Numbered from the stretch's first letter, positions 4,232-28,189 are shown. The stretch is DNA of 64,000 nucleotides from an uncultured Solirubrobacterales bacterium (GCA_963697695.1 OY969094.1:2415958-2479957); one strand, 5' to 3'. The notes: generated from the sequence alone by a model not told the origin. Program-made: numbers and translations.

Positions 4232-4316
4232 GAGTCACTGAATCGGCACGTTTGGGTCTAGTCCCGCGCGTTGGAGCGGGACAGCATCGACCTCCAATCG
4301 ACTGAAGGAGGCTTCG

Positions 4317-4556
4317 ATGTTCTATGCGCTGCTGGGGTACCTGCACGCGGCTGTGGCGAGAAGGGTGCAAACGATTCGCCTGCTCGCTGGAGAGCGGGGG
4401 CAGGGGACGGTCGAGTACGTGGGGCTGATCCTGCTCGTCTCGCTGCTGATGGTGGGGATGGTTGCCGCGATGAAAGGTTTCAATAGAAACTTTAGTAAGA
4501 CCCGAAACTTATATTGCCGACCGGACGCAGGCGATCAGGACAGCTCAAGGCACTGA
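4317..4556 (+). CDS. flp: Flp/Fap-family pilin paralog whose C-terminus is replaced at a repeat junction (possibly a pseudogene)
   Basis: GAAGGAGG RBS. Has the G-X4-EY prepilin motif (RG|QGTVEY) followed by the hydrophobic helix VGLILLVSLLMVGMV. Parallels the intact copy at 27168 up to ...MKGFN, then diverges into the AT-rich repeat (RNFSKTRNLY...). Confidence 0.6.
   Translation: MFYALLGYLHAAVARRVQTIRLLAGERGQGTVEYVGLILLVSLLMVGMVAAMKGFNRNFSKTRNLYCRPDAGDQDSSRH
4482..4527 (+). repeat. AT-rich conserved element, copy A (shortest; forms the junction with flp)
   Basis: AATAGAAACTTTAGTAAGACCCGAAACTTATATTGCCGACCGGACG. Shares the core with the copies at 9340, 12502 and 18195. Confidence 0.8.
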
Positions 4557-4568
4557 TGTCCGGTACGC

Positions 4569-5630: not shown

Positions 5631-6018
5631 GTAGAGCTCGCCTGAGTCCGCTTATCGCTTTGGTGCGCCGCTCTCTCTGAAAATGTTCCGTGAAGTCGTC
5701 ATTCGCTCCCGCTTGTCGGGGCTAGCGGTTTCCGCACGCGCCGATGGAGCCTCGGCAGCCGCACCGGGTAAAAAGCAGTGCAAGGATCGCCAGGCGGAAT
5801 CGACAAGAAGAAGCGTCAGGCAAGGAGGCGATGCATCAGGAGGGCGAGGGGCAGCCGCTCGACCGAAGTAGGGGTCGTCATCGTCGGGCCCCCGACCGCC
5901 GCTCAATCCGGCTCCGCCGTGACAAGACTGCCAAGGCAGAACACGATCCGCACGGGGAGTCGATACCGCAGACGCGCAGTGTCGCCCGACTCCACTCGCC
6001 TACGATCCTGCTGATGAC

Positions 6019-9082: not shown

Positions 9083-9330
9083 TGTCCGGAGTCGGCGTTG
9101 AAGCCTTCGGCCCCATCGCTGGCCAGAATGAAGTTCTCAAGTCGGGTCGAATTGCGGACTTGAACCGATCTCCTGCGCCGCCTACGTTTTCCGATGGCCA
9201 GCTTCGAAAGCCACTACACGGAGATGCTTGATATGGGCTTTGAGGCAGTGGACGAGTAAAAGCCGCCTCGAGCGTGATCGTGAGAATTCCTGTTCATCTC
9301 GGCGCCGGTCCCTTTTGAGACTGCACTGTG

Positions 9331-9425
9331 CCCTGCCTGAATAGAAACCCAAATAAGACCCGAAACCTACCGCCGATATCGGACGGCATGAATCTGACTC
9401 TGAGGGCCGGTTCGTCTCGTAGCGG
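9331..9425 (+). repeat. AT-rich conserved element, copy B (long form)
   Basis: CCCTGCCTGAATAGAAACCCAAATAAGACCCGAAACCTACCGCCGATATCGGACGGCATGAATCTGACTCTGAGGGCCGG..TCTCGTAGCGG. Collinear with copy D over about 95 nt. Confidence 0.8.
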
Positions 9426-9505
9426 CCAGGAGGAGGAAGGCGCGTGGGGCGTTTACCAAATGGCTCTGGAGAGCGCTCGTTGGCACATTTACTTGACGCT
9501 CTATG

Positions 9506-9522
9506 ATTAATTTGAGATACTC
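9506..9522 (+). promoter_or_regulatory. ATTAATTT-N1-AGATACTC motif upstream of the S1 protease gene (a TTGACG -35-like hexamer lies at 9493)
   Basis: The same two words occur at 18850-18881 upstream of the 2366-aa protease-bearing gene. Both sit in AT-rich islands just 5' of an AGGAGG RBS. Confidence 0.4.
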
Positions 9523-9583
9523 AGCCTAATCTTACGCAAGGAGGCGTCAGATGATTGGTCAGGCTTCCAGCGCCTGATGAGCG

Positions 9584-11752: not shown

Positions 11753-11819
11753 TTTGCCCATTCAGCACTACCAGAAACGTGAATAAGTAGCCGCTGGACA
11801 GAGCCCCGGTTTCGGCGAC

Positions 11820-12107
11820 TGGAGTGCCCCCGCTTTGACGGACACCTGAGCGCTGGGTCGTCTGGCCCAGCGGAAAGGATGTCCAGAGATGGAAAAGAGT
11901 GAAAGGGGCCGCGAGGGCCCTGGCCTACCCGCAGCGGATTAACGTCGGCGATCTTCGAGTGGATCGAGGTTTTCTACAACCGCGAGAGAAGACACTTCAC
12001 GCTGGGGTACCTCTCTCCCGAGCAGTATGAGCAAGAATCTCGATCCAAAGTTGAAAAGAAAGAGAGTCGACCAAATCAAGCGTGTCCGGAGAAGCGGGGG
12101 CACTCCA
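11820..12107 (+). mobile_element. 288-bp internally deleted IS3-family (IS407-like ends) element
   Basis: Ends are TGGAGTGCCCCCGCTTTGACGGACAC (11820-11845) and GTGTCCGGAGAAGCGGGGGCACTCCA (12082-12107). They form a TG...CA inverted repeat with 22 of 26 positions matching. The interior carries only the 3' end of a transposase orfB. Confidence 0.7.
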
Positions 12108-12130
12108 CGCCTAGTTGGAGTCGAAGATGA
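11936..12130 (+). pseudogene. IS3-family transposase C-terminal fragment
   Basis: Translation ...AIFEWIEVFYNRERRHFTLGYLSPEQYE... is the conserved tail of the rve domain of IS3 OrfB. There is no upstream catalytic region or start codon. Confidence 0.7.
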
Positions 12131-12321
12131 ACGAGCCACCAAAACGAACTTGCTACGACTGCGGAGGGGTTGGGACTAAGACCTGCCCTGTATGTCAGGG
12201 GTATCGTTTTTGTCAGAATCCGAACCCGCCCCCACCTGACGTCGCCTGTACCGTGTGCGGAGCTGCTGGGCAGGTCTTTTGTAATAACTGCAGCGGGAGA
12301 GGGTGGGTCTACGGCTCGTAG
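12127..12321 (+). CDS. stand-alone DnaJ-type cysteine-rich zinc-finger miniprotein (64 aa)
   Basis: Four CxxCxGxG-like units: CYDCGGVG, CPVCQGYR, CTVCGAAG, CNNCSGRG. ATG at 12127 (a TTG at 12115 is listed). Confidence 0.5.
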   Translation: MNEPPKRTCYDCGGVGTKTCPVCQGYRFCQNPNPPPPDVACTVCGAAGQVFCNNCSGRGWVYGS

Positions 12322-12492
12322 CCCGAGTCCAGGCCGCCAACGCTTCTAGCTGGCAAGCCATGGACCCAGCGGGCATAGGTCTTGTATCGAATTCGCGCCG
12401 CGACCGAGTCGTTGTGTGGCTCAATCCGGACGCTCGCTGACGGGGCAAAAGGGCCGGAATGCAACCGAGGTCGAGCAACAAGTTGGACCGTA

Positions 12493-12558
12493 CCCTGCCT
12501 CAATAGAAACCTTAGTAAGACCCGAAACCTATCGGCGATATCGGATGAATCTGACTTT
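12493..12558 (+). repeat. AT-rich conserved element, copy C
   Basis: CCCTGCCTCAATAGAAACCTTAGTAAGACCCGAAACCTATCGGCGATATCGGATGAATCTGACTTTG. Confidence 0.8.
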
Positions 12559-12701
12559 GATCAGCCTCGGGACGGCCTTCGAGGCCTCAGTCCATGCAGT
12601 CGCTGTTGCTCTGGACTTCGGGGGACACTTTCTCTACGAGCGCCTCCAGCGTTGAGGTTGCAGAGCGTGGACTCGAAGTGGTCCAGGTGTCCGCGGCCTA
12701 A

Positions 12702-12731
12702 CTATTGATCAAATAGATGTCTATTGATCAA
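12702..12731 (+). promoter_or_regulatory. two direct copies of CTATTGATCAA (19-nt period), candidate operator
   Basis: Copies at 12702-12712 and 12721-12731, each containing the palindrome TTGATCAA, 36 nt upstream of the GTG at 12767, in an AT-rich patch. Confidence 0.35.
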
Positions 12732-12766
12732 CAGATGCCTTTTACAAAGGTCTAGCTTCGCATGAC

Positions 12767-13558
12767 GTGCTGGGGAGAGGCAACCGATTGGGAGCTGGGA
12801 GGCTCGGGGTGGCGATCGTGCTGGGTTGCGCGATCGCTCTGGTCGTCGTAGCCGTTGCCGGCGGCGGTTCTACGCCTGCCCCGGACACCGGGGAACGTCG
12901 AGCCCCAGAGTTCGCAGCCGATGCTTCCGGCAGTGAATTCAGACTCGCCAGGGATGAGCCGGCTCGTTCAACGCGATCTGCCGCCGACTCTAAGCACTGG
13001 TCCCCAGTCTTCAATGATGAAGCTCTTCCTTGCACCGCCCCGCGCGAGCCCGTCAACTTCGAAACCTTCTCCGTGGGTCCGTCCATTGAGGGGCTAGCCC
13101 TGACTCATGCCGAACGACGCTGCGGCGGCGGTCCGGTTGCTACGCGCGTCAACTACGTCTCCTACATATATGGCGACTGTGAGATCTCCGACGGCGCGAC
13201 TGGTTGCCAGCCTCCGCTCGAGATACAGACCTGGCCCGCATGCCAGCGCTTTCTCGCCAAGTACTCCTTCAGAGGTAGGCCGCTGCCGCACAGGTTTCTG
13301 CCGGGCCCCAGCGGCGCCAAGGTGGTCGAATTCAACTTCGCCTTTGACAAGCGCATCGAGGTCTACACCGGCTCCGCCACGGTGGTGATCTTCGCTACCG
13401 ACCGGGCTCGCGCCATCGAAGCGGTGGAGATGCTTCGTCTGGAGGGGAGGCGGGAGCCGCCCGCGAGCAACTCAACGGAATTGGACAGCGGCCTCCCGGA
13501 CAGGCTCGAACCGCCCGCGCAGGGCTCGATGGAAGGGAACCTCTCATGCCAAGCCTAA
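12767..13558 (+). CDS. membrane-anchored/secreted hypothetical protein
   Basis: N-terminal hydrophobic segment LGVAIVLGCAIALVVVAVAGGG. Overlaps the next gene by 13 nt, suggesting an operon. No recognisable domain. Confidence 0.5.
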   Translation: MLGRGNRLGAGRLGVAIVLGCAIALVVVAVAGGGSTPAPDTGERRAPEFAADASGSEFRLARDEPARSTRSAADSKHWSPVFNDEALPCTAPREPVNFETFSVGPSIEGLALTHAERRCGGGPVATRVNYVSYIYGDCEISDGATGCQPPLEIQTWPACQRFLAKYSFRGRPLPHRFLPGPSGAKVVEFNFAFDKRIEVYTGSATVVIFATDRARAIEAVEMLRLEGRREPPASNSTELDSGLPDRLEPPAQGSMEGNLSCQA

Positions 13559-16500
13559 GCTCCAATCGCTCACCAGTCGGCATCGCGGCGGCTGTCGCAG
13601 TGACGGTGTTGATGGCAATCGTTCTCTTCGGGTCGCCCGCCGCCACTGCGGAAACCATCGGAGAAGAAGACGTCCAATGGGGATGGGGGGTCGGTGAGGG
13701 CCCGGCCGGAGACTACGACTTCCCCAGCGACGATTGCACGGGCAACCACACCGATCCCGTCGGAGTGCTCTTCATCGGAAAGAGGGCCGGGGTGACGAGC
13801 GTCCAGAGACATATCGAAATCCATAATCGCTGGGATGCGGGTGTCGGCGACACGGGTTCCAATCACTCTCTGTTCGTTCGCAACGATGAAGGAGGGCTCG
13901 AATGCAAAGAGATGGACGCGTCGAGCGCAAATGCCGACGACGCCAGCGATCGAATGCACGTGCGCCTTTGGCACATACCCGCCACCGAGTCTCCCCAGGT
14001 GATGACGGTCGGCACCCCCCATCACGAGGATTTTGTCGTCGGCAACGGTTGCAATACGCATGCGGTCGATCCCAACGGATCGGTCGGAACGAACCACGGG
14101 CCGAATGCGAGCGGCTTCGACTGGGCACGCCACGAGCTCAAGTGGTACTTCTCGCTCCCCAACTCCTGGCACCCCAGTCACTTCCCACAGCATTACGGCG
14201 GAAGGCACCACGTTGAAACCGAGTATTGGGGCAACAGCGCGAACTTCACCCAATGCACGGGCAAAAAAGCCGGGAGCGACGGGTTCGGCGTGGTCATCTG
14301 GATCAATCGCAAGACCGATCCGAGAACCCAGCCGGCATCTGCCTCGCAGAGCAACGCGACACTGTTGGGCGGATTCCAGGGCGATGGAACGACCAACGAA
14401 TGGTGGTTCGGCTACGGGACCAAATCCGCTCAGGGACCCTCGGGATATCAGAAAACGACCTCAGTCAAAACGAGCTCCGCAGTAGCCGAGGTCTCCGTCA
14501 ACGCACCGGTCTCCGACCTGAAGCCGAACACGAGGTATTACGCGAGGCTGTTCATCAAAACCGCCGAAGGCGAGGTTGAGGAAGGAGACGAGGTCGCATT
14601 CACGACCCAGGCGCCCCCGATCGCCGCCTACTCCTTCGACGCAGGCGAAGGGACGCTCGCCGAGGACTCCGCCGGCGGCCACGACGGCACCATCAAAGGC
14701 GCCCAGTGGGTCCGCGGCAAGTTCGGCGGCTCACTCTCCTTCGACGGCGAAAACGACTGCATCTCGGTCCCCGAAAGCGCCCAGCTGCAGTTCCTCGAAG
14801 ACGAAGAATTCACCCTCGAGGCCTGGGTGCGGCCCAAGGACGGGGAAGAAATCCAGGCGATCGTCACCCAGGAAGACGACAGCGCAGCCGAAGAAGAAAG
14901 GCCTTTCTCCTACTCGCTGCTGGTGGGCGGCGAAGAACCCCCCAAGGGCTGGCTGCGAAAAAGCGGCGAAAGCGGCCACATCGTGGTTGCCGAAGGCGAA
15001 CCGCTGCCGCTGAACGCCTGGTCGCACATCGCCTTCGTCAACGACGGCGCGACCCTGCGCTTCTACGTCAACGGCGAGCTCAGCGCCGAGCGGTCCACCC
15101 TCCCGCTTGCGGCTGCCGAAGGGCCGCTGACGATCGGTTGCCTCGACAACATGGGCATCTTCTTCGACGGCCGCATCGACGAGGTCCGCGTCTATGACCG
15201 GGCGCTCGAGGCCGGGGAAGTGGCCACCGACAGGTCGACGCCGATCGTGACGCCACGAGCCGGGCCTGTTGCGGCCTACTCCTTTGACAGAGGTCAGGGT
15301 CAGATTGCTGACGATCTCGTGGGAGAGCATCACGGCACCATCAAAGGCGCCCAGTGGGTCCGCGGCAAGTTCGGCGGCTCACTCTCCTTCGACGGCGAAA
15401 ACGACTGCATCTCGGTCCCCGAAAGCGCCCAGCTGCAGTTCCTCGAAGACGAAGAATTCACCCTCGAGGCCTGGGTGCGGCCCAAGGACGGGGAAGAAAT
15501 CCAGGCGATCGTCACCCAGGAAGACGACAGCGCAGCCGAAGAAGAAAGGCCTTTCTCCTACTCGCTGCTGGTGGGCGGCGAAGAACCCCCCAAGGGCTGG
15601 CTGCGAAAAAGCGGCGAAAGCGGCCACATCGTGGTTGCCGAAGGCGAACCGCTGCCGCTGAACGCCTGGTCGCACATCGCCTTCGTCAACGACGGCGCGA
15701 CCCTGCGCTTCTACGTCAACGGCGAGCTCAGCGCCGAGCGGTCCACCCTCCCGCTTGCGGCTGCCGAAGGGCCGCTGACGATCGGTTGCCTCGACAACAT
15801 GGGCATCTTCTTCGACGGCCGCATCGACGAGGTCCGCGTCTATGACCGGGCGCTCGAGGCCGGGGAAGTGGCCACCGACAGGTCGACGCCGATCGTGACG
15901 CCCCAGGCGCCCCCGATCGCCGCCTACTCCTTCGACGCAGGCGAAGGGACGCTCGCCGAGGACTCCGCCGGCGGCCACGACGGCACCATCAAAGGCGCCC
16001 AGTGGGTCCGCGGCAAGTTCGGCGGCTCACTCTCCTTCGACGGCGAAAACGACTGCATCTCGGTCCCCGAAAGCGCCCAGCTGCAGTTCCTCGAAGACGA
16101 AGAATTCACCCTCGAGGCCTGGGTGCGGCCCAAGGACGGGGAAGAAATCCAGGCGATCGTCACCCAGGAAGACGACAGCGCAGCCGAAGAAGAAAGGCCT
16201 TTCTCCTACTCGCTGCTGGTGGGCGGCGAAGAACCCCCCAAGGGCTGGCTGCGAAAAAGCGGCGAAAGCGGCCACATCGTGGTTGCCGAAGGCGAACCGC
16301 TGCCGCTGAACGCCTGGTCGCACATCGCCTTCGTCAACGACGGCGCGACCCTGCGCTTCTACGTCAACGGCGAGCTCAGCGCCGAGCGGTCCACCCTCCC
16401 GCTTGCGGCTGCCGAAGGGCCGCTGACGATCGGTTGCCTCGACAACATGGGCATCTTCTTCGACGGCCGCATCGACGAGGTCCGCGTCTATGACCGGGCG

Positions 16501-17199
16501 CTCGAGGCCGGGGAAGTGGCCACCGACAGGTCGACGCCGATCGTGACGCCACGAGCCGGGCCTGTTGCGGCCTACTCCTTTGACAGAGGTCAGGGTCAGA
16601 TTGCTGACGATCTCGTGGGAGAGCATCACGGCACCATCAAAGGCGCCCAGTGGGTCCGCGGCAAGTTCGGCGGCTCACTCTCCTTCGACGGCGAAAACGA
16701 CTGCATCTCGGTCCCCGAAAGCGCCCAGCTGCAGTTCCTCGAAGACGAAGAATTCACCCTCGAGGCCTGGGTGCGGCCCAAGGACGGGGAAGAAATCCAG
16801 GCGATCGTCACCCAGGAAGACGACAGCGCAGCCGAAGAAGAAAGGCCTTTCTCCTACTCGCTGCTGGTGGGCGGCGAAGAACCCCCCAAGGGCTGGCTGC
16901 GAAAAAGCGGCGAAAGCGGCCACATCGTGGTTGCCGAAGGCGAACCGCTGCCGCTGAACGCCTGGTCGCACATCGCCTTCGTCAACGACGGCGCGACCCT
17001 GCGCTTCTACGTCAACGGCGAGCTCAGCGCCGAGCGGTCCACCCTCCCGCTTGCGGCTGCCGAAGGGCCGCTGACGATCGGTTGCCTCGACAACATGGGC
17101 ATCTTCTTCGACGGCCGCATCGACGAGGTCCGCGTCTATGACCGGGCGCTCGAGGCCGGGGAAGTGGCCACCGACAAGGGGTCGCCGATCGAAGGGTGA
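13546..17199 (+). CDS. secreted protein with an N-terminal unknown region, an FN3-like domain and four tandem LamG (concanavalin-A-like lectin) domains
   Basis: Signal-like N-terminus. Each repeat has the LamG_3-type pattern (G..W.H.A.V.DG..LR.YVNGEL.......G.L.IG......FFDGRIDEVRVYDRAL). The FN3-like segment ends ...LKPNTRYYARLFIKTAEGEVEEGDEVAFTT. Confidence 0.7.
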   Translation: MPSLSSNRSPVGIAAAVAVTVLMAIVLFGSPAATAETIGEEDVQWGWGVGEGPAGDYDFPSDDCTGNHTDPVGVLFIGKRAGVTSVQRHIEIHNRWDAGVGDTGSNHSLFVRNDEGGLECKEMDASSANADDASDRMHVRLWHIPATESPQVMTVGTPHHEDFVVGNGCNTHAVDPNGSVGTNHGPNASGFDWARHELKWYFSLPNSWHPSHFPQHYGGRHHVETEYWGNSANFTQCTGKKAGSDGFGVVIWINRKTDPRTQPASASQSNATLLGGFQGDGTTNEWWFGYGTKSAQGPSGYQKTTSVKTSSAVAEVSVNAPVSDLKPNTRYYARLFIKTAEGEVEEGDEVAFTTQAPPIAAYSFDAGEGTLAEDSAGGHDGTIKGAQWVRGKFGGSLSFDGENDCISVPESAQLQFLEDEEFTLEAWVRPKDGEEIQAIVTQEDDSAAEEERPFSYSLLVGGEEPPKGWLRKSGESGHIVVAEGEPLPLNAWSHIAFVNDGATLRFYVNGELSAERSTLPLAAAEGPLTIGCLDNMGIFFDGRIDEVRVYDRALEAGEVATDRSTPIVTPRAGPVAAYSFDRGQGQIADDLVGEHHGTIKGAQWVRGKFGGSLSFDGENDCISVPESAQLQFLEDEEFTLEAWVRPKDGEEIQAIVTQEDDSAAEEERPFSYSLLVGGEEPPKGWLRKSGESGHIVVAEGEPLPLNAWSHIAFVNDGATLRFYVNGELSAERSTLPLAAAEGPLTIGCLDNMGIFFDGRIDEVRVYDRALEAGEVATDRSTPIVTPQAPPIAAYSFDAGEGTLAEDSAGGHDGTIKGAQWVRGKFGGSLSFDGENDCISVPESAQLQFLEDEEFTLEAWVRPKDGEEIQAIVTQEDDSAAEEERPFSYSLLVGGEEPPKGWLRKSGESGHIVVAEGEPLPLNAWSHIAFVNDGATLRFYVNGELSAERSTLPLAAAEGPLTIGCLDNMGIFFDGRIDEVRVYDRALEAGEVATDRSTPIVTPRAGPVAAYSFDRGQGQIADDLVGEHHGTIKGAQWVRGKFGGSLSFDGENDCISVPESAQLQFLEDEEFTLEAWVRPKDGEEIQAIVTQEDDSAAEEERPFSYSLLVGGEEPPKGWLRKSGESGHIVVAEGEPLPLNAWSHIAFVNDGATLRFYVNGELSAERSTLPLAAAEGPLTIGCLDNMGIFFDGRIDEVRVYDRALEAGEVATDKGSPIEG
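14608..17176 (+). repeat. in-frame tandem duplication: a 1296-bp unit repeated twice (the second copy about 25 bp short), each unit made of two 648-bp LamG-encoding subrepeats
   Basis: CAGGCGCCCCCGATCGCC starts at 14608 and again at 15904. All six-frame ORFs recur unchanged at +648 or +1296 (for example 14706, 15354, 16002, 16650; minus strand 14731-15333 equals 16027-16629). Confidence 0.9.
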
Positions 17200-18898: not shown

Positions 18899-21800
18899 AT
18901 GGGAAGCGCACGCTGGATGGCCGCTGGGGAGGAGCGAATTCCTGCGAGGTCGCAAGTTACCGCCAGCCGCCGGATTGCCGTTGTAGCTCTGTTCTTTCTT
19001 GCTGTCTCGGCGGCATCCGTTGTTGCTGCCTCTGCAGCCAACGGACCCGAGGAATTGTTTTCGGCCCCAGAAGCGCCGAGCCCAAGCGGCGTCGAAGTCG
19101 CCGCAGTCGAAGACGAACGACAAGAACGTGCCGAGTGGCTCTCGAGCCCCGAAGCTCAAAAGCAGCGCGAAGCGTCCCGCGCCGCCTACACGACCCTCTC
19201 GGCAGGCGAAGCCCAGAGCTTGCTTGTCGAAGCCTTCCCCGAACAGCTCGCTCAACTGAACGCCGACCCAGCGCGCCTTCTCAGCGAACTCGAAATCGAA
19301 GAAATCCTCGGCACCTACGGCGCCCTAGCCTCGAACAGCAAGGGTGAAACCTCGATAGTCGAGTCATCTATCCAGATCGTGAGCGAGGTGGGCGGCGAAG
19401 GCAAGCAGCCTGTCGATCTCAGCTTGGAACGATCCGGTAATGACTTTGTTTCAGAGAACCCGCTCACCGAGGTCAAGCTTCCTGTCTCAACTGAAGAACT
19501 GATCCAACTCCAGAATGGGATTGAAGTCCAGCTGCCAGCCAACGACGCTCACGACGCCCAGACTCTCGGCACTAAGAATCTCTTCTATCCAGAAACCGCA
19601 ACGGCCACCGACACACTTCTCTCCCCGATAGCCGCCGGCGTCGAGGTCTTCGAGCAGCTGCGCTCACCTGAGAGTCCCGAGCAGTTTCGCTTCGCACTCC
19701 AGCTGCCAGCGGGTGCGACGCTGCGTCCGACCGACGTTGGCGGTGCTGAAGTCCTCTCTTCATCGGAAGCCGCGATTGGACAGGTGCCGTCTCCCTCCGC
19801 CGTGGACGCTCAGGGCACCCTGGTCCCGGTCACGATGAGCGTCGAGGGGGAATCGCTCGTCCTCGACGTCCCGCATCGCTCGCACGACTTCGCCTACCCG
19901 ATTCTCGTCGACCCGCAGTTCCTCGAAGAGGGGTATGTGGCCTTCAATTACTGGGCCCCGAGCTGGAACGCCGCATACAACCTCTCGAACAGTTCCAGCC
20001 TCTTGGCGAGTGCGCAGGGGAACGGTTATGTCTACGGCGCCAATACTTACGGACATTGGGTCTACACCGCCCCCGGCCAGACGACCTATATCGCGGCCGC
20101 CACCTACTTCTCTAACACCTTCACCCTCCCGGAAAACTGCGCTAAAGAACAACCCACCAACCAGCCTCACGGCTACGCCGGCCTCTTCAATCCTTCCTCA
20201 GGGGGCTACGTCGGTCTCGGTATCTGGTATGGGGGCAATCACTACATGGGCCAATACCAGACCGGCTGGGTCGGAGGTCCCGGTGTCCGCCAGGCGGTGG
20301 TGGGTATCGGCACCGGCCCGGCCTCAGTTCACCACAAATGCGCGTTCACATTCTCTGTGGGCGGCGTCACGATCCAAGAGAAGGATCCCGAGGCACCGAC
20401 TATCTATTCAGTCGTCGGCGCCTCTGGTAACTGGGTCAAAGACATCACCGTCACCGCCTATGTCAGCGATCCGGGACTTGGGGTCAAGGGGATAACGCTT
20501 AGCCCCGAAGGGAGTCTGCCTTACACCTACCCGGTTGGTAACTGCACCGGCACCTACACCAGCCGCTGTCCGGCCAGCGCGCAAGCCAGCTTCGGCGTCT
20601 CCTATTTTTTCGAAGGCGAAAGGAATGCCAGCCTCTCGGCCTATGACCCGCTCGGCCCTGACGAACCGGCACACGTCTCCTCCTCCTACAAATGGACGAC
20701 CAGGCTCGACCGCAGCAAGCCCGAAGTTGAGCTCGAAGGCGAATTCACCGAGGCGCTGGAGGAAGCCGAAGAAGAGGAAGAGGGAAAAGAAGCTCCAGAG
20801 CTCCATCTCCCGGTCTACAACCTGAAGATCGAAGCCACCGACAAAGCCGCTACGGGCAACCCCCTCTCAGAACCGAAAGCTAGGCGCTCGGGCGTCAAAA
20901 ACATCGCCGTATTTCTCGACGGCAAAGAACTGAAAGTGCCCTGGCTCCCACAGGGATGCTCCGGACCTACATTCAGCTGTCCGATGAAAGTGAACTACCC
21001 GGTTCCGATGGACGAAGTGAAAGGAGGCGGCGTTCACAAACTGAATGTGATTGCAACCGATCAAGTGGGCAACGCCCGAGAACGCCCCATCGAATTCGAA
21101 TACTTCCCTGCAACCGGGATCAAGGACGAATACGTGATGCACCACTTCCCGCTTCCCAACGGTGAAGGAGAATCAGAAGAAGAGCATCCAAACCGGCCCG
21201 AACTCGCGGTCAATGTCACGAACGGCAATCTCGTCTACCGCCAAAAGGATGTCGAAGTCACCGGTCCCGCCGTCGACCTCGAAGTTGAACGCTATTACAA
21301 CTCCCAGCTGCCCGACGACGACAACACTGAGTGGGGCGACGGCTGGACTCTTGCCCAGACCCCCAAGCTGGAACCCGAAGAAACCAAAGAAGGAGCCCCG
21401 CCCGTCAAGGCTTCGATGGTGCGCACCAGCGGCATTCTGGAGAGCGCTGTCGGACTGCCTACCAAAATCGGTGCCACGCAGTTCGACAAGAAGCTGCAGG
21501 CGGTGGTGACTAAGGAACCGGATGGTGGCTACGAGGTCGATGACCAAAGCGACGAAACGAGCACCTCGCTTGCCTTCGACAAAGTCGGCAAGGTAACCGA
21601 AATGCGCACGCCTGGCGCCGCCAAGATCGACTACTCCTACGAAGCAGGTGACCTCTCCGAAATCGCGGTCGAAGACCCCGCCAGCTCGCCGATGAGCCCT
21701 ACGGTGCTCGAAGAATTGCAGGAGGAACCAGCAGAATGGTCCCTGCAAACCACCCCCAATCCCGCACCACCCAAAACCAACGCCGAACTCAGCGACGTCG

Positions 21801-24800
21801 CCTGCTCCTCGGCTAGCGCCTGTCTCGCGGTCGGCTATGACAACGCCAACGGCCGCAGTCTCGGCGAGTTTTGGAACGGCAGCAAATGGGTCGCCGGGAC
21901 CTCCGTGTCGGGCCGCCGCCTGAAAGCGGTCTCCTGCGGGGCTCCCTCGGTGTGCTGGGTGCTCGCCACCAATTCCGACGGCAGTGCCGCCACCGAGTAC
22001 TGGGAAGGCCAGATCTGGGAAGGCGCCCCCAAACCGGCGGTTCCCAGCGGCGGCTCCTCAGTGACGCTGAACAGCATCTCCTGCACCGCCGCCATGACCT
22101 GCACTGCGGTCGGCTCCTACGTCAAAGAAGGCAAAACCCTGCCCCTGATCGAGCGCCTCAGCAGCTTCAACTGGTCGGTGCAAAACGCCGCAACCACCAG
22201 CTCGGCTTCGCTCAAGGACGTCTCCTGTGTCTCTGCCAGTGAATGCGTCGCGATCGGCTTCGGCGAAGGCAAACTGATCGCCGAACGCTGGAACGGCACG
22301 ACCTGGTCGGTGCTCTCGGCCCCACCCAACCCGGCAAGCAAATACGCGTCGTCCACGACGCTCACCGATCTCTCCTGCACCTCCTCGAGCGCCTGCATGG
22401 CGATCGGCTTCTACTACAAAGACGGAAAAGTAGTCGAAGAAGAAGTGCAACAAGAACGTTTCTGGTTCGCAGACAGATGGAACGGATCGAGCTGGTCGGC
22501 TGCCGGCCAGGGCACAGAAGCAGCAGAATCCCTCAACGACCTCGCCTGCACCACAGCCACCAACTGCACTGCAGTCGGCACCAAGGGCTCCAAAACCCTG
22601 GCGCTGAGCTGGAACGGAAGCAGTTGGAGCACCCAGTCCTCGCCCAACCCCGAAGGCAAGACCCCCATTCTGAGTGCGATCTCCTGCAGCGCGACGGCGG
22701 CCTGCACCAGCATCGGCAAGGCCACCGGGGGCGGGGAAACGGTGAGCTTGGCGGAGCGCTGGAACGGAACGTCCTGGTCCCTGCAAACCACCCCCAATCC
22801 CGCACCACCCAAAACCAACGCCGAACTCAGCGACGTCGCCTGCTCCTCGGCTAGCGCCTGTCTCGCGGTCGGCTATGACAACGCCAACGGCCGCAGTCTC
22901 GGCGAGTTTTGGAACGGCAGCAAATGGGTCGCCGGGACCTCCGTGTCGGGCCGCCGCCTGAAAGCGGTCTCCTGCGGGGCTCCCTCGGTGTGCTGGGTGC
23001 TCGCCACCAATTCCGACGGCAGTGCCGCCACCGAGTACTGGGAAGGCCAGATCTGGGAAGGCGCCCCCAAACCGGCGGTTCCCAGCGGCGGCTCCTCAGT
23101 GACGCTGAACAGCATCTCCTGCACCGCCGCCATGACCTGCACTGCGGTCGGCTCCTACGTCAAAGAAGGCAAAACCCTGCCCCTGATCGAGCGCCTCAGC
23201 AGCTTCAACTGGTCGGTGCAAAACGCCGCAACCACCAGCTCGGCTTCGCTCAAGGACGTCTCCTGTGTCTCTGCCAGTGAATGCGTCGCGATCGGCTTCG
23301 GCGAAGGCAAACTGATCGCCGAACGCTGGAACGGCACGACCTGGTCGGTGCTCTCGGCCCCACCCAACCCGGCAAGCAAATACGCGTCGTCCACGACGCT
23401 CACCGATCTCTCCTGCACCTCCTCGAGCGCCTGCATGGCGATCGGCTTCTACTACAAAGACGGAAAAGTAGTCGAAGAAGAAGTGCAACAAGAACGTTTC
23501 TGGTTCGCAGACAGATGGAACGGATCGAGCTGGTCGGCTGCCGGCCAGGGCACAGAAGCAGCAGAATCCCTCAACGACCTCGCCTGCACCACAGCCACCA
23601 ACTGCACTGCAGTCGGCACCAAGGGCTCCAAAACCCTGGCGCTGAGCTGGAACGGAAGCAGTTGGAGCACCCAGTCCTCGCCCAACCCCGAAGGCAAGAC
23701 CCCCATTCTGAGTGCGATCTCCTGCAGCGCGACGGCGGCCTGCACCAGCATCGGCAAGGCCACCGGGGGCGGGGAAACGGTGAGCTTGGCGGAGCGTACG
23801 ATCCTTCGCCCAGAACCCGCTCCAGAAGAAGATCCCAAGGTTGAAGTCAATACCTCCGCCGGGCTCGTCACCAGCGTCCAAGGCGAGGAGGCAGGTCCGA
23901 CCACCTACACCCATACAGCCGAACTGCTGACAGCGGTCAACGGTCCCAAAGGCAAAACCCAATACGTATATGACTCCGAGAAACGGCTGACCAAAGTCAC
24001 GCTGCCTAACGGTACCTGGGGCGAAGTTAAATACGACAGTTTCAGTCGAGTGGAAGCCGTGATCGTCTCAGTCGAAGGCGGAAAAGCCAAGACCGCCAAA
24101 TTCACCTACAAAGAGGAACCGAGGCGAACAACCGTCTCTCCTGAAGGAGAACGGACGACGGTTTACGACATCGCCCTCGACGGCTCGATACTCAAGTGGT
24201 GGAATACTAAAGTGCCACCCGAAATCCAGAACCTCTCGGGCACCCTTTACGCAAACAAGGAAACCGAGAAAGCGATAACCCCCGGCGACTACAGTCTCCT
24301 CGTCCAAGCCTACTCCGTCGAAGGGGTCGCTTTGATCGAAATCGTCGCCAACGGCGATCAGGTCGTCTCTGAAAAGACCTGCAAACAAACTGAAGGAACG
24401 AGCTGCAAAACCGTCGAAGACCCCTGGATTACTAACACTGGCAACTGGCCACCTGGAATTCTGCAGCTTGAAGTGATCATTACAGACACAACAGGCAACG
24501 TCGAATCCGTCAAATTCTGGGTCAACGTTCCCTACACGCCACCATCCAACCCTGAGGCCGACGAACCACCGATATTCGAAGACATCCTCCATTTCCGTGA
24601 AGAATTCGGTCTCGATCTCGATCTCAAAGGCAACGAGCTCGCGATCGTCGAACGGATCTCCAACTCAATCGGCGATTGGTACAATCCGCATACACCAGAG
24701 GGAGAAGTTGCGCGAGCGACCTATGAACGCTGGAGTGTGCCACTTCGTGCGATTGATGCGGCAGAGCTGGAATATCGCGACTGGTTCTACAACCACAACG

Positions 24801-25999
24801 CGCAGCGAATCAACCAATGGCTCGAAGAAACTCAGTCAAGTAGCTTTGCCGGGTACTACATCGACCATGCCGCCGGCGGAGTCATGCATATTGGCTTTCT
24901 CGGCAACCAAGCAGAACAACTGGCAAGCCTAGAGGCGTCACTGTCGCTGGCGGCAGGGGAGAGGCTGCAGGTCTATCCAGTGGGCCCGACCGTGTCGTAC
25001 CTTTCGGTTCGGGCAGCTTCGGAATCGGTCTCGAATGCGCTCGAATCGAATTCCACACTCAGCGGACTCGTCGTTGATGTGAAGTTCGACGAATCCGGGA
25101 GAGCCGTACGAGTCGGAACCCCTAGCGTGGCCCAGGTCGAAGGGATTCTGCACCAGATGTTCGGCTCCAATGCTCCGATAGTGGTCGAATACGAAACGGC
25201 CGATGGGAGTTTGCTGGGGGGCCGCTGGCGTAATGAAGGAAGGATGCGAGCCGGTGATGGGATTTTCACCAAACACTTTGACGCTGAAAATGTATATCAG
25301 GGCATCCATGAATGCACCGCAGCCTTTGGCGCTAAGGACAAGGCTGGCGAGTCCCACGGCCAGCCTCGCTGGCGACTATTCGTTCTCACCGCTGGCCATT
25401 GCAATCCGATAACATGGGAAAATTGGGTATATCGGACTTCTGATGGCGGTACGTCTGTATCCGACCAGACAGAGAGGCGAGAAAATGAAGATAACTGGCG
25501 AAAAATTGGAGAGGTAAGACGCTCAGCCTACCGTGTGCTTGATGAATCACCCACCACCGACGGAGAGGCGATCAGGGTCGAAAGCGCTGGAGTTGTGCCG
25601 CAGGGGATATTCGGCTCCGAGGGACGCCTATTGCCCACCGAGCCAGCGGCGACGGCAAGGGAGGGGGATCTCGTCTGCTTTTCCGGTGTCGCAACTAACG
25701 GCGTCTCTTGCGGCCCGATAATCGGACGCACATCATTTTGGGCGGGGGCGGGTGATGGAGTTGCACACGCTGGATACTGGGTCAGATTTAACCGTCACGC
25801 TATCCCCGGCGACAGCGGCGCACCCGTTTACAGTGCCTCGGATCGGCGGTCTATCGGATTGGTGTCGGCTGGCCGCCACAATCTCACTCAGACTCTCGTC
25901 CAGCCGCTGCGAACTCCGCCTGGAATGAACTCGGGCAGGGTCCCTGGGATCCTCGACAATCCGTACCTGCGACCTCTTAGTCTCAAGCTCGGCAATTGA
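18899..25999 (+). CDS. 2366-aa secreted multidomain protein: N-terminal anchor, Ig-like regions, YD/RHS-type repeats, Cys-rich 'WNG..W' repeats, and a C-terminal pro-S1 serine protease module
   Basis: Good RBS and signal/anchor (RRIAVVALFFLAVSAASVVAASA). YD-type repeats include VNVTNGNLVYRQKDVEV, GKTQYVYDSEKRLTKVTLPNG and KYDSFSRVEAV. There are about 12 repeats of the form L.D(V/L)(S/A)C.S...C.A(V/I)G...ERWNG..W. The C-terminus carries LTAGHC ... DGEAIRV ... IPGDSGAPVY. Confidence 0.8.
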   Translation: MGSARWMAAGEERIPARSQVTASRRIAVVALFFLAVSAASVVAASAANGPEELFSAPEAPSPSGVEVAAVEDERQERAEWLSSPEAQKQREASRAAYTTLSAGEAQSLLVEAFPEQLAQLNADPARLLSELEIEEILGTYGALASNSKGETSIVESSIQIVSEVGGEGKQPVDLSLERSGNDFVSENPLTEVKLPVSTEELIQLQNGIEVQLPANDAHDAQTLGTKNLFYPETATATDTLLSPIAAGVEVFEQLRSPESPEQFRFALQLPAGATLRPTDVGGAEVLSSSEAAIGQVPSPSAVDAQGTLVPVTMSVEGESLVLDVPHRSHDFAYPILVDPQFLEEGYVAFNYWAPSWNAAYNLSNSSSLLASAQGNGYVYGANTYGHWVYTAPGQTTYIAAATYFSNTFTLPENCAKEQPTNQPHGYAGLFNPSSGGYVGLGIWYGGNHYMGQYQTGWVGGPGVRQAVVGIGTGPASVHHKCAFTFSVGGVTIQEKDPEAPTIYSVVGASGNWVKDITVTAYVSDPGLGVKGITLSPEGSLPYTYPVGNCTGTYTSRCPASAQASFGVSYFFEGERNASLSAYDPLGPDEPAHVSSSYKWTTRLDRSKPEVELEGEFTEALEEAEEEEEGKEAPELHLPVYNLKIEATDKAATGNPLSEPKARRSGVKNIAVFLDGKELKVPWLPQGCSGPTFSCPMKVNYPVPMDEVKGGGVHKLNVIATDQVGNARERPIEFEYFPATGIKDEYVMHHFPLPNGEGESEEEHPNRPELAVNVTNGNLVYRQKDVEVTGPAVDLEVERYYNSQLPDDDNTEWGDGWTLAQTPKLEPEETKEGAPPVKASMVRTSGILESAVGLPTKIGATQFDKKLQAVVTKEPDGGYEVDDQSDETSTSLAFDKVGKVTEMRTPGAAKIDYSYEAGDLSEIAVEDPASSPMSPTVLEELQEEPAEWSLQTTPNPAPPKTNAELSDVACSSASACLAVGYDNANGRSLGEFWNGSKWVAGTSVSGRRLKAVSCGAPSVCWVLATNSDGSAATEYWEGQIWEGAPKPAVPSGGSSVTLNSISCTAAMTCTAVGSYVKEGKTLPLIERLSSFNWSVQNAATTSSASLKDVSCVSASECVAIGFGEGKLIAERWNGTTWSVLSAPPNPASKYASSTTLTDLSCTSSSACMAIGFYYKDGKVVEEEVQQERFWFADRWNGSSWSAAGQGTEAAESLNDLACTTATNCTAVGTKGSKTLALSWNGSSWSTQSSPNPEGKTPILSAISCSATAACTSIGKATGGGETVSLAERWNGTSWSLQTTPNPAPPKTNAELSDVACSSASACLAVGYDNANGRSLGEFWNGSKWVAGTSVSGRRLKAVSCGAPSVCWVLATNSDGSAATEYWEGQIWEGAPKPAVPSGGSSVTLNSISCTAAMTCTAVGSYVKEGKTLPLIERLSSFNWSVQNAATTSSASLKDVSCVSASECVAIGFGEGKLIAERWNGTTWSVLSAPPNPASKYASSTTLTDLSCTSSSACMAIGFYYKDGKVVEEEVQQERFWFADRWNGSSWSAAGQGTEAAESLNDLACTTATNCTAVGTKGSKTLALSWNGSSWSTQSSPNPEGKTPILSAISCSATAACTSIGKATGGGETVSLAERTILRPEPAPEEDPKVEVNTSAGLVTSVQGEEAGPTTYTHTAELLTAVNGPKGKTQYVYDSEKRLTKVTLPNGTWGEVKYDSFSRVEAVIVSVEGGKAKTAKFTYKEEPRRTTVSPEGERTTVYDIALDGSILKWWNTKVPPEIQNLSGTLYANKETEKAITPGDYSLLVQAYSVEGVALIEIVANGDQVVSEKTCKQTEGTSCKTVEDPWITNTGNWPPGILQLEVIITDTTGNVESVKFWVNVPYTPPSNPEADEPPIFEDILHFREEFGLDLDLKGNELAIVERISNSIGDWYNPHTPEGEVARATYERWSVPLRAIDAAELEYRDWFYNHNAQRINQWLEETQSSSFAGYYIDHAAGGVMHIGFLGNQAEQLASLEASLSLAAGERLQVYPVGPTVSYLSVRAASESVSNALESNSTLSGLVVDVKFDESGRAVRVGTPSVAQVEGILHQMFGSNAPIVVEYETADGSLLGGRWRNEGRMRAGDGIFTKHFDAENVYQGIHECTAAFGAKDKAGESHGQPRWRLFVLTAGHCNPITWENWVYRTSDGGTSVSDQTERRENEDNWRKIGEVRRSAYRVLDESPTTDGEAIRVESAGVVPQGIFGSEGRLLPTEPAATAREGDLVCFSGVATNGVSCGPIIGRTSFWAGAGDGVAHAGYWVRFNRHAIPGDSGAPVYSASDRRSIGLVSAGRHNLTQTLVQPLRTPPGMNSGRVPGILDNPYLRPLSLKLGN
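21737..23796 (+). repeat. in-frame tandem duplication with 1038-bp period (two copies identical over 1022 bp) inside the 2366-aa gene
   Basis: TGGTCCCTGCAAACC occurs at 21737 and 22775. Identity runs to ...GGCGGAGCG at 22758 and 23796. ORFs in several frames recur unchanged at +1038 (21835 and 22873, 21871 and 22909, 22117 and 23155). Confidence 0.9.
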
Positions 26000-26003
26000 G
26001 ATT

Positions 26004-26441
26004 ATGAATCGAATGCTTCGGCTCCATTCTCGCCCGCATGGGATGTGGGCAAGAGTCTGCCTAGCTATCCTGGTAGCGCTGCTTTCTACGGTCGCCTTTA
26101 CTGGCTGCGGCTCGTCTATGACCACGAGTCCAGCTGAGGCTAAGGCCATCTCAATTGCAGAACATAGATTCTTGGAGGAATGGAAAGATGCGAGTGTGGA
26201 TAGAACCGCCCGGTGTTCAAGGAAGGGCGAACCAGCAGGCACCAGGTGCTACCAGAAGACAGTTGCCCCCCTCGAGACGAAAGCCATAGCAAGATTCTCG
26301 GGGTCTATCAATGGATTTCTAGAAGGCGGCGTAGGTCCGAAATGTGCCGATGAGCTCGAGAAGACTTTGTCAACTATGAACTCTGTGCCCTTGTTTCCTG
26401 GGGGAATCGCCTCGATCTGCCGTTTTGAGAGTCGGGGGTAG
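26004..26441 (+). CDS. small lipoprotein (145 aa) immediately downstream of the 2366-aa protease-bearing gene
   Basis: Lipobox LSTVAFTG|C after a basic/hydrophobic leader. It starts 5 nt after the upstream stop codon. No recognisable domain. Confidence 0.55.
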   Translation: MNRMLRLHSRPHGMWARVCLAILVALLSTVAFTGCGSSMTTSPAEAKAISIAEHRFLEEWKDASVDRTARCSRKGEPAGTRCYQKTVAPLETKAIARFSGSINGFLEGGVGPKCADELEKTLSTMNSVPLFPGGIASICRFESRG

Positions 26442-26882: not shown

Positions 26883-27167
26883 CGAGCTTCCTGACTACTG
26901 GGCTCCATTCATCGCGGTCGGTGTCTAGGAAGACGTAGAGCTCGGTGGCTTTGGCGTAGTGCCCTGTCGAGCCCTCCGGGGGGATGTTGCGGTAGGAGTG
27001 GGCACAAGGCCGACCGACTTTCTCCTTCCCTATATCACCCCCAAGTAACGCCGGTATTTGCCGGGCGTTCCGCATTTCTCTCTCATCACTGAAACGACAC
27101 AGATGGGTCTAGATCCGTGCGTCGGCGCGGAGCAGCATCGGGCTCCAATCGACTGAAGGAGGCTTCG

Positions 27168-27413
27168 ATGTTCTATGCGCTAGTGGGGTATCTGCACGCG
27201 GTCGCGACGGCGAGGGTGCAGGCGATCCGTTCGCTTGCGGGTGAGCGGGGGCAGGGGACGGTCGAGTATGTGGGGCTGATCCTGCTCGTCTCGCTGCTGA
27301 TGGTGGGCATGGTCGTTGCGATGAAAGGGTTCAACGGCAAACAGGGGACCGAGTTGGCGGACGTGATCGTCGACAAGATCAAGGAGTCCGTCGACCGGGT
27401 GACGTTCAAATAA
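27168..27413 (+). CDS. flp: Flp/Fap-family type IVb pilin (81 aa)
   Basis: GAAGGAGG RBS. Has the G-X4-EY motif (G|QGTVEY) plus the hydrophobic helix. Paralog of 4317-4556, including about 64 bp of upstream sequence. Confidence 0.75.
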   Translation: MFYALVGYLHAVATARVQAIRSLAGERGQGTVEYVGLILLVSLLMVGMVVAMKGFNGKQGTELADVIVDKIKESVDRVTFK

Positions 27414-27424
27414 AGGGTGGTGGA

Positions 27425-27448
27425 GGGGCGGCTCGAGCGGGCCGCCCC
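27425..27448 (+). terminator. GC-rich hairpin after flp
   Basis: GGGGCGGC-tcgagcgg-GCCGCCCC, 12 nt after the stop codon. There is no T-tract. Confidence 0.35.
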
Positions 27449-27542
27449 GCTGCGCGTGCCGGGGCGGAGCCGGTTGGTCGATCCCGTGCAGGTTCCGGTG
27501 GAGAGGATTCCGTCTGGGTCGAAGCGTACGCTGTATTACAGC

Positions 27543-27779
27543 ATGAAGCATCGAACTCAGCTATATCTGGATGAGGGTCAGTACCGCTGGCTCAAACAGC
27601 GTGCGGGAGAGGCGGGCAGCATCGCCGCGGTCGTGCGCGAGCTGATCGATGCGGAGCGGGCTCGCGGGGTCGGTTCGGCCACCGATCCCCTGCTGAGCTA
27701 CCTCGTCGACGAGGCGCCCAGCAAGGGACGGGAGGGGACGAGCGTCAGCACGCTGGACCGCGACCTCTACGGCCCATGA
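27543..27779 (+). CDS. vapB: antitoxin (RHH/CopG-like), VapB-type
   Basis: 78 aa. MKHRTQLYLDEGQYRWLKQRAGEAGSIAAVVRELI has the RHH pattern. Its stop overlaps the start of the PIN gene (ATGA). Confidence 0.65.
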   Translation: MKHRTQLYLDEGQYRWLKQRAGEAGSIAAVVRELIDAERARGVGSATDPLLSYLVDEAPSKGREGTSVSTLDRDLYGP

Positions 27780-28189
27780 GGTCGGTCTTCATCGACACCA
27801 GCGCCTTCGTCGCGCTGCGCAACTCTGCCGAGGCCGAGCACGAGCAGGCCCGCTCGGCGCTGGCCGATCTGATCGCCGAGGGAGTGGCGCTCTTCACCTC
27901 GAACTACGTGTTCGCCGAGACGTACACGGCGCTGATGGTCCGGGTTGGGCGGGGGGAGGCGATCGAGTGGGGTCGTCGCTTTCGTGCAGGCGGGGCGATC
28001 GACCTCGTCCATCTCGACCGGTCCACCGAGGCACGCGCCTGGGAGATCCTCGAGCAGCACGGGGACAAGCGCTGGAGCTACGTCGACGCAACCTCCTTCG
28101 CCCTGATCGAGCGCGACGGCGGCAACGAAGCCTTCGCCTTCGACGCCCACTTCGCCCAGCGAGGCCTTCGGGTTTTGCCGGATGCGTGA
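27776..28189 (+). CDS. vapC: PIN-domain toxin, VapC-type
   Basis: VFIDTSAFVAL ... ETYTAL ... SYVDATSFALIE ... AFAFDAHF supplies the conserved acidic residues of a PIN domain. Confidence 0.75.
   Translation: MRSVFIDTSAFVALRNSAEAEHEQARSALADLIAEGVALFTSNYVFAETYTALMVRVGRGEAIEWGRRFRAGGAIDLVHLDRSTEARAWEILEQHGDKRWSYVDATSFALIERDGGNEAFAFDAHFAQRGLRVLPDA

Follow-up and report, generated by a model that had tools for sequence, protein, structure and literature searches.

Two adjoining genes at positions 18,899 to 26,441 of a 64,000-nucleotide stretch of DNA from an uncultured Solirubrobacterales bacterium (GCA_963697695.1 OY969094.1:2415958-2479957; the whole stretch is hereafter called the window) form what we read, at about even confidence for the explanation as a whole, as the locus of a polymorphic protease effector in a Gram-positive actinobacterium from soil. 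The first gene (18899..25999, + strand) has an ATG start and an uninterrupted open reading frame (ORF) of 2366 amino acids (aa), encoding a giant protein in which a scaffold and a binding module are followed by a pro-S1E protease. The second (26004..26441, + strand) encodes a predicted 145-aa lipoprotein, the window's member of partner family A and a putative cognate inhibitor or immunity protein. The two genes are separated by the four nucleotides gatt between the TGA stop (25997-25999) and the partner's ATG (26004); a terminator scan found no + strand site between them, and a sigma-70 promoter scan returned zero sites. Comparison with related loci indicates that the stretch from just after the motif DAAELEYR in the giant protein to the end of the partner gene is very probably a cassette that recombination has swapped across related genomes, independently of the scaffold. 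An earlier reading of this DNA from the sequence alone (the sequence-only reading) had proposed a polymorphic-toxin-like layout, and both ORFs are as it described them.

The C-terminal ~475 aa of the giant protein comprise a pro-domain and a protease of the S1E (streptogrisin/alpha-lytic) type. Pfam assigned the C-terminal 499 aa to no family even at E <= 10, with the trypsin and Pro_Al_protease models both failing, NCBIfam returned a weak Rv1815_serprot match only, and a single-sequence search of the PDB gave a marginal match to streptogrisin B (SGPB) in which LTAGHC and PGDSGAP nevertheless both align. Pfam is blind to the module, and its identity was established from profile and structure comparisons. 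Database searching found 49 homologues of the module, 23-69% identical to it, and its profile matched 2sfa in the PDB with an E-value of 5.6e-12, followed by the Lysobacter proteases L5 and L1, TFPA, SGPB, SGPA and alpha-lytic protease. The AlphaFold2 (AF2) model, with a predicted local distance difference test score (pLDDT) of 85, consists of four helices (module residues 2-87), two alpha/beta units (residues 92-207) and a double-barrel protease, for which Foldseek retrieved SGPA/SGPB, L1/L5, NAPase, TFPA and alpha-lytic protease at TMt 0.66-0.79 and E ~1e-10 (top entries 2sfa, 2sga, 5mrt, 2sgp, 2oua, 2lpr and 2pfe). The protease is thus a divergent member of peptidase subfamily S1E. Its mature part (residues 2117-2366; 25247..25996, + strand) carries LTAGHC at 2163, DGEAIRV at 2221 and GDSGAP at 2304, and the catalytic triad of H2167 (25397-25399), D2221 (25559-25561) and S2306 (25814-25816) is invariant in an alignment of 30 sequences whose members are 24-61% identical to the window module. 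The complete ~470-aa pro-S1 protease with an H/D/S triad that the sequence-only reading had recognized is confirmed.

A ~225-aa stretch containing the two alpha/beta units precedes the protease in the AF2 model and is not matched by Pfam Pro_Al_protease. Within it, the pro-domain proper, with its two alpha/beta units, occupies residues ~1961-2116 (24779..25246, + strand) and opens the exchangeable cassette, and the match to a pro-domain hidden Markov model (proDom) spans 24575-25246 with an E-value of 9e-109. The same pro-region layout is found in P0049, a 453-aa free-standing S1 family peptidase, and free-standing homologues of the pro-domain are encoded downstream of the giant gene in three related loci (L055, L028 and L072). 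The pro-domain is presumed to be an intramolecular foldase and inhibitor. Processing would occur between GRMR and AGDGIF, near R2116/A2117, a placement suggested by the conserved GRMRAGD and by likeness to the N-terminus of mature SGPB, which we take to be ISGGDAIY and analogous to the window's AGDGIF junction.

A homologue scan using one genome per species yielded 59 loci, nearly all of them in metagenome-assembled genomes (MAGs) of Solirubrobacterales, and about 65 related loci were collected in total. Complete module-bearing ORFs, usually of 1840-2901 aa, were found in ~40 Solirubrobacterales MAG loci. The encoded proteins share the N-terminal ~940 aa (37-71% identical) and the C-terminal ~720 aa, the latter made up of YD hairpins, an Ig-like domain and the pro-protease, and they differ in a variable centre. 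Most hold NHL propellers there; the window protein and those of L026 and L037 have Cys-pair repeats instead, and LamG repeats occupy the centre in L045, L053 and L059. In 54 of the 55 loci with enough sequence, a small gene for an exported protein of families A to E starts between -6 and +163 nt from the stop of the giant gene, and in the remaining locus the downstream gene encodes a free pro-domain homologue. Partner-type genes were not detected upstream of the giant gene, where the flank available was about 3-5 kb in most loci.

The first downstream genes fall into at least five unrelated families, all of which have a lipobox, a signal peptide or four transmembrane (TM) segments. Family A comprises the helical lipoproteins of the window type, family B 4-TM proteins, and family C, the commonest, beta-rich lipoproteins ending in ..FD.S..PP..RWP. 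Members of family D are secreted proteins of ~300 aa, with short versions termed Ds, and a Big_14 Ig-like domain is present in both; family E proteins are also ~300 aa in length. Families A and C had been merged by BLAST single-linkage, a grouping that we rejected because the two were joined through their signal peptides and hhalign of the mature parts gave a probability of 0.2%. In many loci several partner genes stand in arrays of mixed order, as in L021 (C C C ... C D B C B), in L024 (C C C D serpin B, followed by another D gene encoded on the other strand) and in L035 (Ds A B B). In L024 and L036 the downstream arrays include intact serpins (Pfam E ~1e-87), and serpin-like sequences are also present in L031 and in L008, in the latter split over two ORFs. 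Family B is frequently found in two copies and at the distal end of the arrays, sometimes beside a serpin (L012, L015, L021 and L035), and may be an accessory component of the membrane that is conserved, and not a partner specific to a clade. A single universal type of downstream gene was considered and rejected; family B and serpins recur at distal array positions and may be accessory.

The family of the first partner is clade-specific on the tree of protease modules. In 43 of 56 cases a protein and its nearest neighbour by mature protease share the partner family; 2000 trials with shuffled labels averaged 17 such cases and never exceeded 29. Among 40 full-length proteins, the neighbour had the same partner family in 29 when chosen by mature protease and in only 16 when chosen by N-terminal scaffold, and across 861 pairs N-terminal and mature-protease identities are almost uncorrelated (r = 0.17). 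The partner family tracks the protease and not the scaffold, so that the co-variation of module and partner across genomes, which the sequence-only reading had named as a check, is observed.

The separate histories of scaffold and protease are also visible in individual comparisons. Between the window (family A) and L026 and L037 (both family C), identity is 71% in the N-terminus, 58-59% in the YD/Ig region, 51% in the pro-domain and 37% in the mature protease. The scaffolds closest to that of the window by YD/Ig region, identified in a metagenome scan, are L071 (74%), L072 (71%) and L073 (69%), yet their mature proteases are only 26-34% identical to the window's and their first downstream genes encode a family D protein, a free pro-domain protein and a family C protein, respectively. 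Like scaffolds with different C-termini and different small genes, the other comparison that had been proposed, are thus found. When the window was compared with L072, L073, L036 and L026 by sliding identity, values of 68-80% were maintained to residue ~1960 and dropped to 15-38% beyond, the break falling directly after DAAELEYR (residues 1953-1960), the most conserved pattern of the family. At these break-showing loci the partner is a free pro-domain (L072) or a family C protein (L073, L036 and L026), as opposed to family A in the window. The exchanged ends have diverged within a single protease family and do not differ in fold, and the mature protease is the fastest-diverging part of the giant protein.

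Protease-gene 3' fragments without an upstream frame, located downstream of the main gene, were identified in L021, L066, L032, L074, L075 and L001-type contigs. A partner gene follows the fragment in L021, L066, L074 and L075, and in all four the type of the fragment, as judged from its closest full-length relatives, matches the family of that partner; in L066, L074 and L075 the orphan's partner family differs from that of the main gene. Orphan toxin-immunity modules of this pattern are known from Rhs and contact-dependent inhibition (CDI) systems (PMC3150448, PMC3967940). Two further loci contain disrupted protease genes and are decaying copies of the system: in L059 the gene is interrupted by an IS481-like integrase gene (~10984-11953), and in L067, from a Terriglobia-labelled MAG, it lies in fragments (9300-13170).

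A set of unrelated effector folds at the end of the scaffold is not supported; protease-tipped loci always end in a pro-S1E protease, and only remoter scaffold relatives (P0085, P0076 and P0106) end in something else, a putative Amidase_6 domain. Scaffold relatives of this kind at 26-42% identity, some with NHL propellers in between, were seen in L068 (5001-9380), L069 (5001-9941) and L070 (2393-5866). At least two kinds of hydrolase are thus found at the C-terminal end of this scaffold. The amidase-tipped relatives have no consistent coupled downstream gene, which argues that the partner goes with the protease.

The lipoprotein encoded directly behind the window protease has the lipobox FTGC with Cys35, as had been noted, although FTGC is atypical at position -3, where homologues carry the canonical IAGC, LAGC or VAGC. 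Its mature part of ~111 aa is helical with four conserved cysteines, and an invariant segment of family A reads SVPLFPGG-AS-C. A word-index search found four homologues, and exhaustive HMMER searching of 1.84 billion representatives with the family A profile retrieved ~24-30 clusters, all of small proteins of the same family, which makes family A a closed small family with no link in that search to any known one. The pairing of protease and family A gene recurs in L001-L004, L009, L010 and L023, and in the metagenome contigs L001-L004 the lipoprotein homologue overlaps the end of the gene that ends in the pro-protease by 4 nt. In L005 a family A homologue (5597-5965, + strand) does not stand behind a protease gene; its divergent neighbour (4032-5390, - strand) encodes a 452-aa secreted protein of Cys-pair repeats like those in the window.

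In the part of the giant protein upstream of the module, Pfam yielded only DUF6531, one RHS_repeat and a sub-threshold Big_3_3. The N-terminus (residues 1-46; 18899..19036, + strand) is predicted to act as a Sec signal peptide or as a signal anchor, recognized in the sequence by R24R25, a hydrophobic h-region at 26-44 and a putative cleavage site between ASA and A at 44-47, in agreement with the signal/anchor proposed earlier. It is followed by the conserved N-terminal scaffold (residues ~50-946; 19046..21736, + strand), which is 37-71% identical in relatives. Searches of the PDB with the N-terminal 946 aa found no relative, and those with the N-terminal profile gave matches limited to the NHL propellers of homologues. 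DUF6531 (PF20148) was matched above the cut-off at residues 771-827 (21209-21379; E 6.4e-9) and begins with VNVTNGNLVYR, the entry motif of the sequence-only reading; the DUF6531 region is common to the genuine Rhs proteins P0097, P0101, P0103 and P0107. The Ig-like regions of that reading fare less well in the window, where the Big_3_3 match at residues 697-738 (E 5.5e-4) is weak and below the Pfam cut-off.

The centre of the protein (21737..23812, + strand) is a variable binding module of 14 Cys-pair (C-x5-C) repeats, so that the Cys-rich repeats reported earlier are present, though not in the number of about 12 given for them. The repeats, each of 44-57 aa, span residues 947-1638 as two identical blocks of seven, produced by an exact tandem duplication with a period of 1038 nt (21737-23796) on which Tandem Repeats Finder is silent, since the repeat periods exceed 500 nt. 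Pfam and PDB sequence searches found no relative of the block, which probably folds as two seven-bladed beta-propellers. Exact internal duplications were also seen by eye in the central regions of several relatives (L012, L023 and L036), and the duplication of the central module reflects either true variation in the copy number of the binding module or an assembly artefact that recurs. On the C-terminal side lie further YD hairpins and then an Ig-like domain ending in KFWVNVPY (23798..24571, + strand; 39-74% conserved in relatives), after which a helical adaptor (residues 1892-1960; 24572..24778, + strand; helices from AF2) ends in DAAELEYR (24755-24778).

Whether these YD hairpins could form a cocoon was considered. 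By eye there are ~3 before the Cys repeats and ~5 after them, with a single Pfam RHS_repeat match at residues 1677-1706 and a TEN_YD-shell match of merely E 0.058. A total of about eight hairpins excludes a closed Rhs/teneurin shell, and the earlier reservation that the YD repeats were too few for a full one was well placed. An Rhs core was absent in an NCBIfam search at E <= 1, and the DPxGL motif (DP.GL) does not occur in the protein. The Rhs cocoon was accordingly rejected, the protein having a single RHS_repeat stretch where P0097, a true Rhs protein, has 17, and neither core nor DPxGL. Of the Rhs/teneurin-type grammar attributed to the locus, the swappable end with its partner gene is supported, and encapsulation and delivery of that type, which go with a YD shell, Rhs core and DPxGL, are not.

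Comparison with Rhs/WapA-type systems (PMC3150448, PMC3967940, PMC12704120) shows which features are shared. Like them, the locus combines an N-terminal export signal, as in Gram-positive WapA, with DUF6531, YD repeats and a conserved demarcation motif before a divergent C-terminal end, together with a coupled, co-varying downstream gene and, in related loci, downstream orphan ends with partner genes. Unlike them, the giant protein has no closed YD shell, Rhs core or DPxGL autoprotease; its swapped end is always a pro-S1E protease placed outside the cytoplasm, whereas theirs are assorted toxins, most of them cytoplasmic, and the partners here are exported lipoproteins, membrane proteins or secreted proteins. 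By the genetic features of polymorphic toxin systems in the portion of the Zhang et al. 2012 catalogue consulted (PMC3482391), the locus is alike in its conserved scaffold with a variable C-terminal end, its co-varying downstream gene and the orphans in relatives. The peptidase toxins named in that portion are of metallo-, papain-, caspase-, LD-peptidase and MCF1-SHE types, and the word 'trypsin' is absent from the 300,000 of its 357,715 characters covered (PMC3482391). A search of one literature collection found no publication joining Solirubrobacterales and polymorphic toxins. We class the locus with polymorphic toxin-immunity systems, as a variant, and not with the Rhs-cocoon family.

The protease resembles S1E enzymes in its fold, the order H-D-S, the TAGHC and GDSG motifs and the preceding pro-domain. 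It differs from them in its setting, as they are free-standing preproenzymes of ~400 aa and it forms the C-terminal ~475 aa of a 2366-aa scaffold, in a mature part of ~250 aa that contains insertions and is extended at its C-terminus by ~40 conserved aa, and in having a coupled, co-varying partner gene. Umbrella toxins (PMC11062931) offer another parallel, being Sec-exported agents of actinobacterial antagonism in which a trypsin fold is combined with diverse lectin and beta-propeller modules, and in which a small partner engages the protease cleft, as the partner in the window would. In Streptomyces coelicolor, however, the UmbA proteins have an incomplete triad and are catalytically inert adaptors, the toxin being the C-terminus of a separate protein, UmbC (PMC11062931), whereas the window triad is invariant and the presumed foldase pro-domain is kept. 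An inert adaptor like UmbA was rejected on the grounds of the intact, invariant triad of the window family; an ALF-repeat protein resembling UmbC was not seen among the window ORFs scanned. The ABP/S8-Ntox loci (PMC12582261, PMC13556192) likewise join a Sec-exported serine protease to a cognate, co-varying partner in inter-bacterial competition, but there the S8 protease is a separate activator, the toxin is of nuclease type and immunity is cytoplasmic, while in the window the S1E protease is itself the terminal domain and is accompanied by no other toxin domain.

In the staphopain-staphostatin, SpeB-Spi and AprA-AprI pairs, an inhibitor gene lies directly downstream of the protease gene, and Spi, a homologue of the pro-domain of SpeB that stands alone, is paralleled by the free pro-domain genes of L055, L028 and L072. 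To our knowledge the staphopain, SpeB and AprA pairs are conserved one-to-one, and we know of no cassette exchange, multi-family arrays, orphans or giant scaffolds among them.

The reading of the locus as a polymorphic protease effector can be put as a series of proposed steps. The giant protein would be exported by the Sec pathway and remain tethered to or near the cell surface, the pro-domain would fold the protease, and autocleavage near R2116/A2117 would free or activate the enzyme of ~250 aa that the scaffold carries at its far end. A target surface would be bound by the lectin-like module in the centre, and the protease would then attack envelope proteins or peptidoglycan cross-bridges of neighbours, much as the Lysobacter proteases L1 and L5 lyse competitors by hydrolysing the peptide bridges of peptidoglycan (PMC12250508). 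The co-transcribed lipoprotein, on the outer face of the producer's membrane, would bind the cognate protease as an inhibitor, and the multi-gene partner arrays of relatives, serpins and free pro-domains included, would be inhibitor collections. That the partner is a cognate inhibitor or immunity protein has, we infer, a slightly better than even chance. It is favoured because all partners are extracytoplasmic, because serpins and free pro-domains, which are known types of inhibitor, share the partner arrays, and because the partner goes with the protease and with neither the scaffold nor the amidase-tipped relatives. The extracytoplasmic location of the partners also favours antagonism, and the bacteriolytic L1 and L5 are among the closest structural relatives of the protease; service against neighbouring cells is thus possible, although we place this antibacterial role somewhat short of probable.

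Several observations weigh against this reading. The effector always belongs to the same enzyme family and its fold never changes, and a secreted protease and a self-protective inhibitor could diverge fast without any inter-bacterial antagonism. The window itself has one partner and zero orphans. The 145-aa lipoprotein has no relative in Pfam, NCBIfam or the PDB, its AF2 model is helical and of low confidence (pLDDT 62), and Foldseek searches with that model gave generic helical bundles only (best E 0.96), in keeping with the earlier statement that it has no recognizable domain; by sequence or fold it resembles none of the described inhibitor families (serpin, SSI, ecotin and others). Searches of the PDB with families C and D also found no relatives. 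Family B proteins, often encoded distally in the arrays, are membrane proteins with 4 TM segments, which would be unusual for a protease inhibitor. Within family D a mirror-tree comparison found the similarities of partner and protease uncorrelated, and within family C the correlation is modest (rho 0.46) over pairs that are not independent. Finally, the comparison loci are almost all MAG or metagenome assemblies, some of them with frameshifts or insertion sequence (IS) elements (L059, L067 and L071), and individual cases may be affected by frameshifts and misassemblies.

Three other explanations account for parts of the evidence. One, which we consider unlikely while giving it real weight, is self-protection without warfare. 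Here a surface-tethered digestive or remodelling protease, serving nutrient acquisition or the turnover of matrix or cell wall, would be kept in check by housekeeping inhibitors that protect the envelope of the producer, as in the staphopain-staphostatin, AprA-AprI and SpeB-Spi pairs, and exchange would reflect ordinary recombination with rapid co-evolution. The coupling of the partner and the signs of an inhibitor theme fit this equally well, proteases of subfamily S1E with pro-domains are classically secreted general proteases, the central NHL, LamG or propeller modules could bind polymers in place of cells, and the constancy of the effector fold within the protease-tipped set is as it should be. 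Orphan cassettes of tail and partner and arrays of mixed families are hard to explain in this way, however, as one cognate inhibitor would be enough, and the switching of partner family among otherwise similar scaffolds looks like diversifying, frequency-dependent selection.

The downstream proteins might instead be cognate substrates or accessory subunits, processed or activated by the protease or held in its cleft, which we regard as distinctly unlikely. Cognate pairs of protease and substrate would also produce co-variation, the S8 protease AbpP activates only cognate AbpT toxins (PMC12582261), and the trypsin-like domain of UmbA holds the N-terminus of the small beta-sandwich protein UmbB (PMC11062931); the Ig-like Big_14 domain of families D and Ds would suit such a part, and the 4-TM family B could serve as a membrane dock. 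Yet the members of families A and C are lipoproteins, anchored in the membrane of the producer itself, and have no recognizable toxin domain, bona fide inhibitors (serpins and free pro-domains) stand in the same arrays, and the triad is intact and invariant with the presumed foldase pro-domain kept, whereas every UmbA protein in S. coelicolor lacks a complete triad. An adhesin with a protease for its own maturation, followed by functionally unrelated operon cargo, appears very improbable, even though a large, exported protein rich in repeats and built of Ig-like, propeller and LamG modules is typical of adhesins, and autoprocessing domains are common in such proteins (PMC3482391). Against it, a closely coupled partner gene is retained in 54 of 55 loci, the partner follows the protease and not the scaffold and accompanies orphan protease tails, and the mature protease diverges fastest, which is unexpected for a purely intramolecular housekeeping step.

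If the polymorphic protease-effector reading is true, the polymorphic toxin-immunity scheme extends to trypsin-fold proteases acting in the Gram-positive cell envelope, and the conspicuous genes for 2000-2900-aa proteins of the Solirubrobacterales, an abundant but barely cultured soil order, acquire a function. Several new candidate families of protease inhibitor would also emerge, each provided by nature with a matrix of cognate and non-cognate specificities, and DAAELEYR would be a clean recombination junction for swapping pro-protease cassettes. Lytic S1E proteases are of applied interest as antimicrobials (PMC12250508). We tentatively suggest, with confidence a little under even, that this may be the first polymorphic toxin system to use an active alpha-lytic-type S1 protease with its own foldase pro-domain as a swappable warhead, borne by a giant surface scaffold with lectin modules in place of an Rhs cocoon, with the five or more unrelated families (A to E) as new classes of extracytoplasmic serine-protease inhibitor kept as immunity libraries beside serpins and free pro-domains.

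The exact 2366-aa protein is already on a database record and is the sole member of its 90%-identity cluster. Both genes lie within the first ~28 kb of the window, where the G+C content is 54-64% as compared with about 70% elsewhere. This lower-GC island (1-28000; 0.54-0.64 versus ~0.70 for the remainder) also contains an IS481-type transposase gene (6039-7076), a gene for a DUF4365 and TPR protein (7106-9082) and large ORFs without a Pfam match (68-1288, 1285-4164 and 4569-5630), and the entire surface-protein cluster may have been acquired horizontally on it. Upstream of the giant gene, 13546-17199 (+ strand) encodes a 1217-aa secreted protein with four LamG (Laminin_G_3) repeats, which are 40-44% identical to the centres of the giant proteins in L045, L053 and L059, and within which an exact duplication with a period of 1296 nt occupies 14606-17176. 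This protein could be a donor or relic of the swappable central binding module. A second S1E-like protease domain (residues 232-407; streptogrisin B, E 3e-10), overlooked by Pfam, is fused to FG-GAP repeats in the product of 9584-11752 (+ strand).

At the edge of the island, a small ORF at 27417-27779 (+ strand) overlaps a PIN-domain gene at 27776-28189 (+ strand; PF01850, E 9e-14), and the two make up a VapBC-like toxin-antitoxin pair; a MazE/PIN pair lies downstream of the amidase-tipped relative in L068 at a distance similar to that of the PIN pair in the window. The 98-aa ORF at 27117-27413 (+ strand), which has no Pfam match, contains GQGTVEYVGLILLVSLL, similar to the signal motif of Flp-type pilins.

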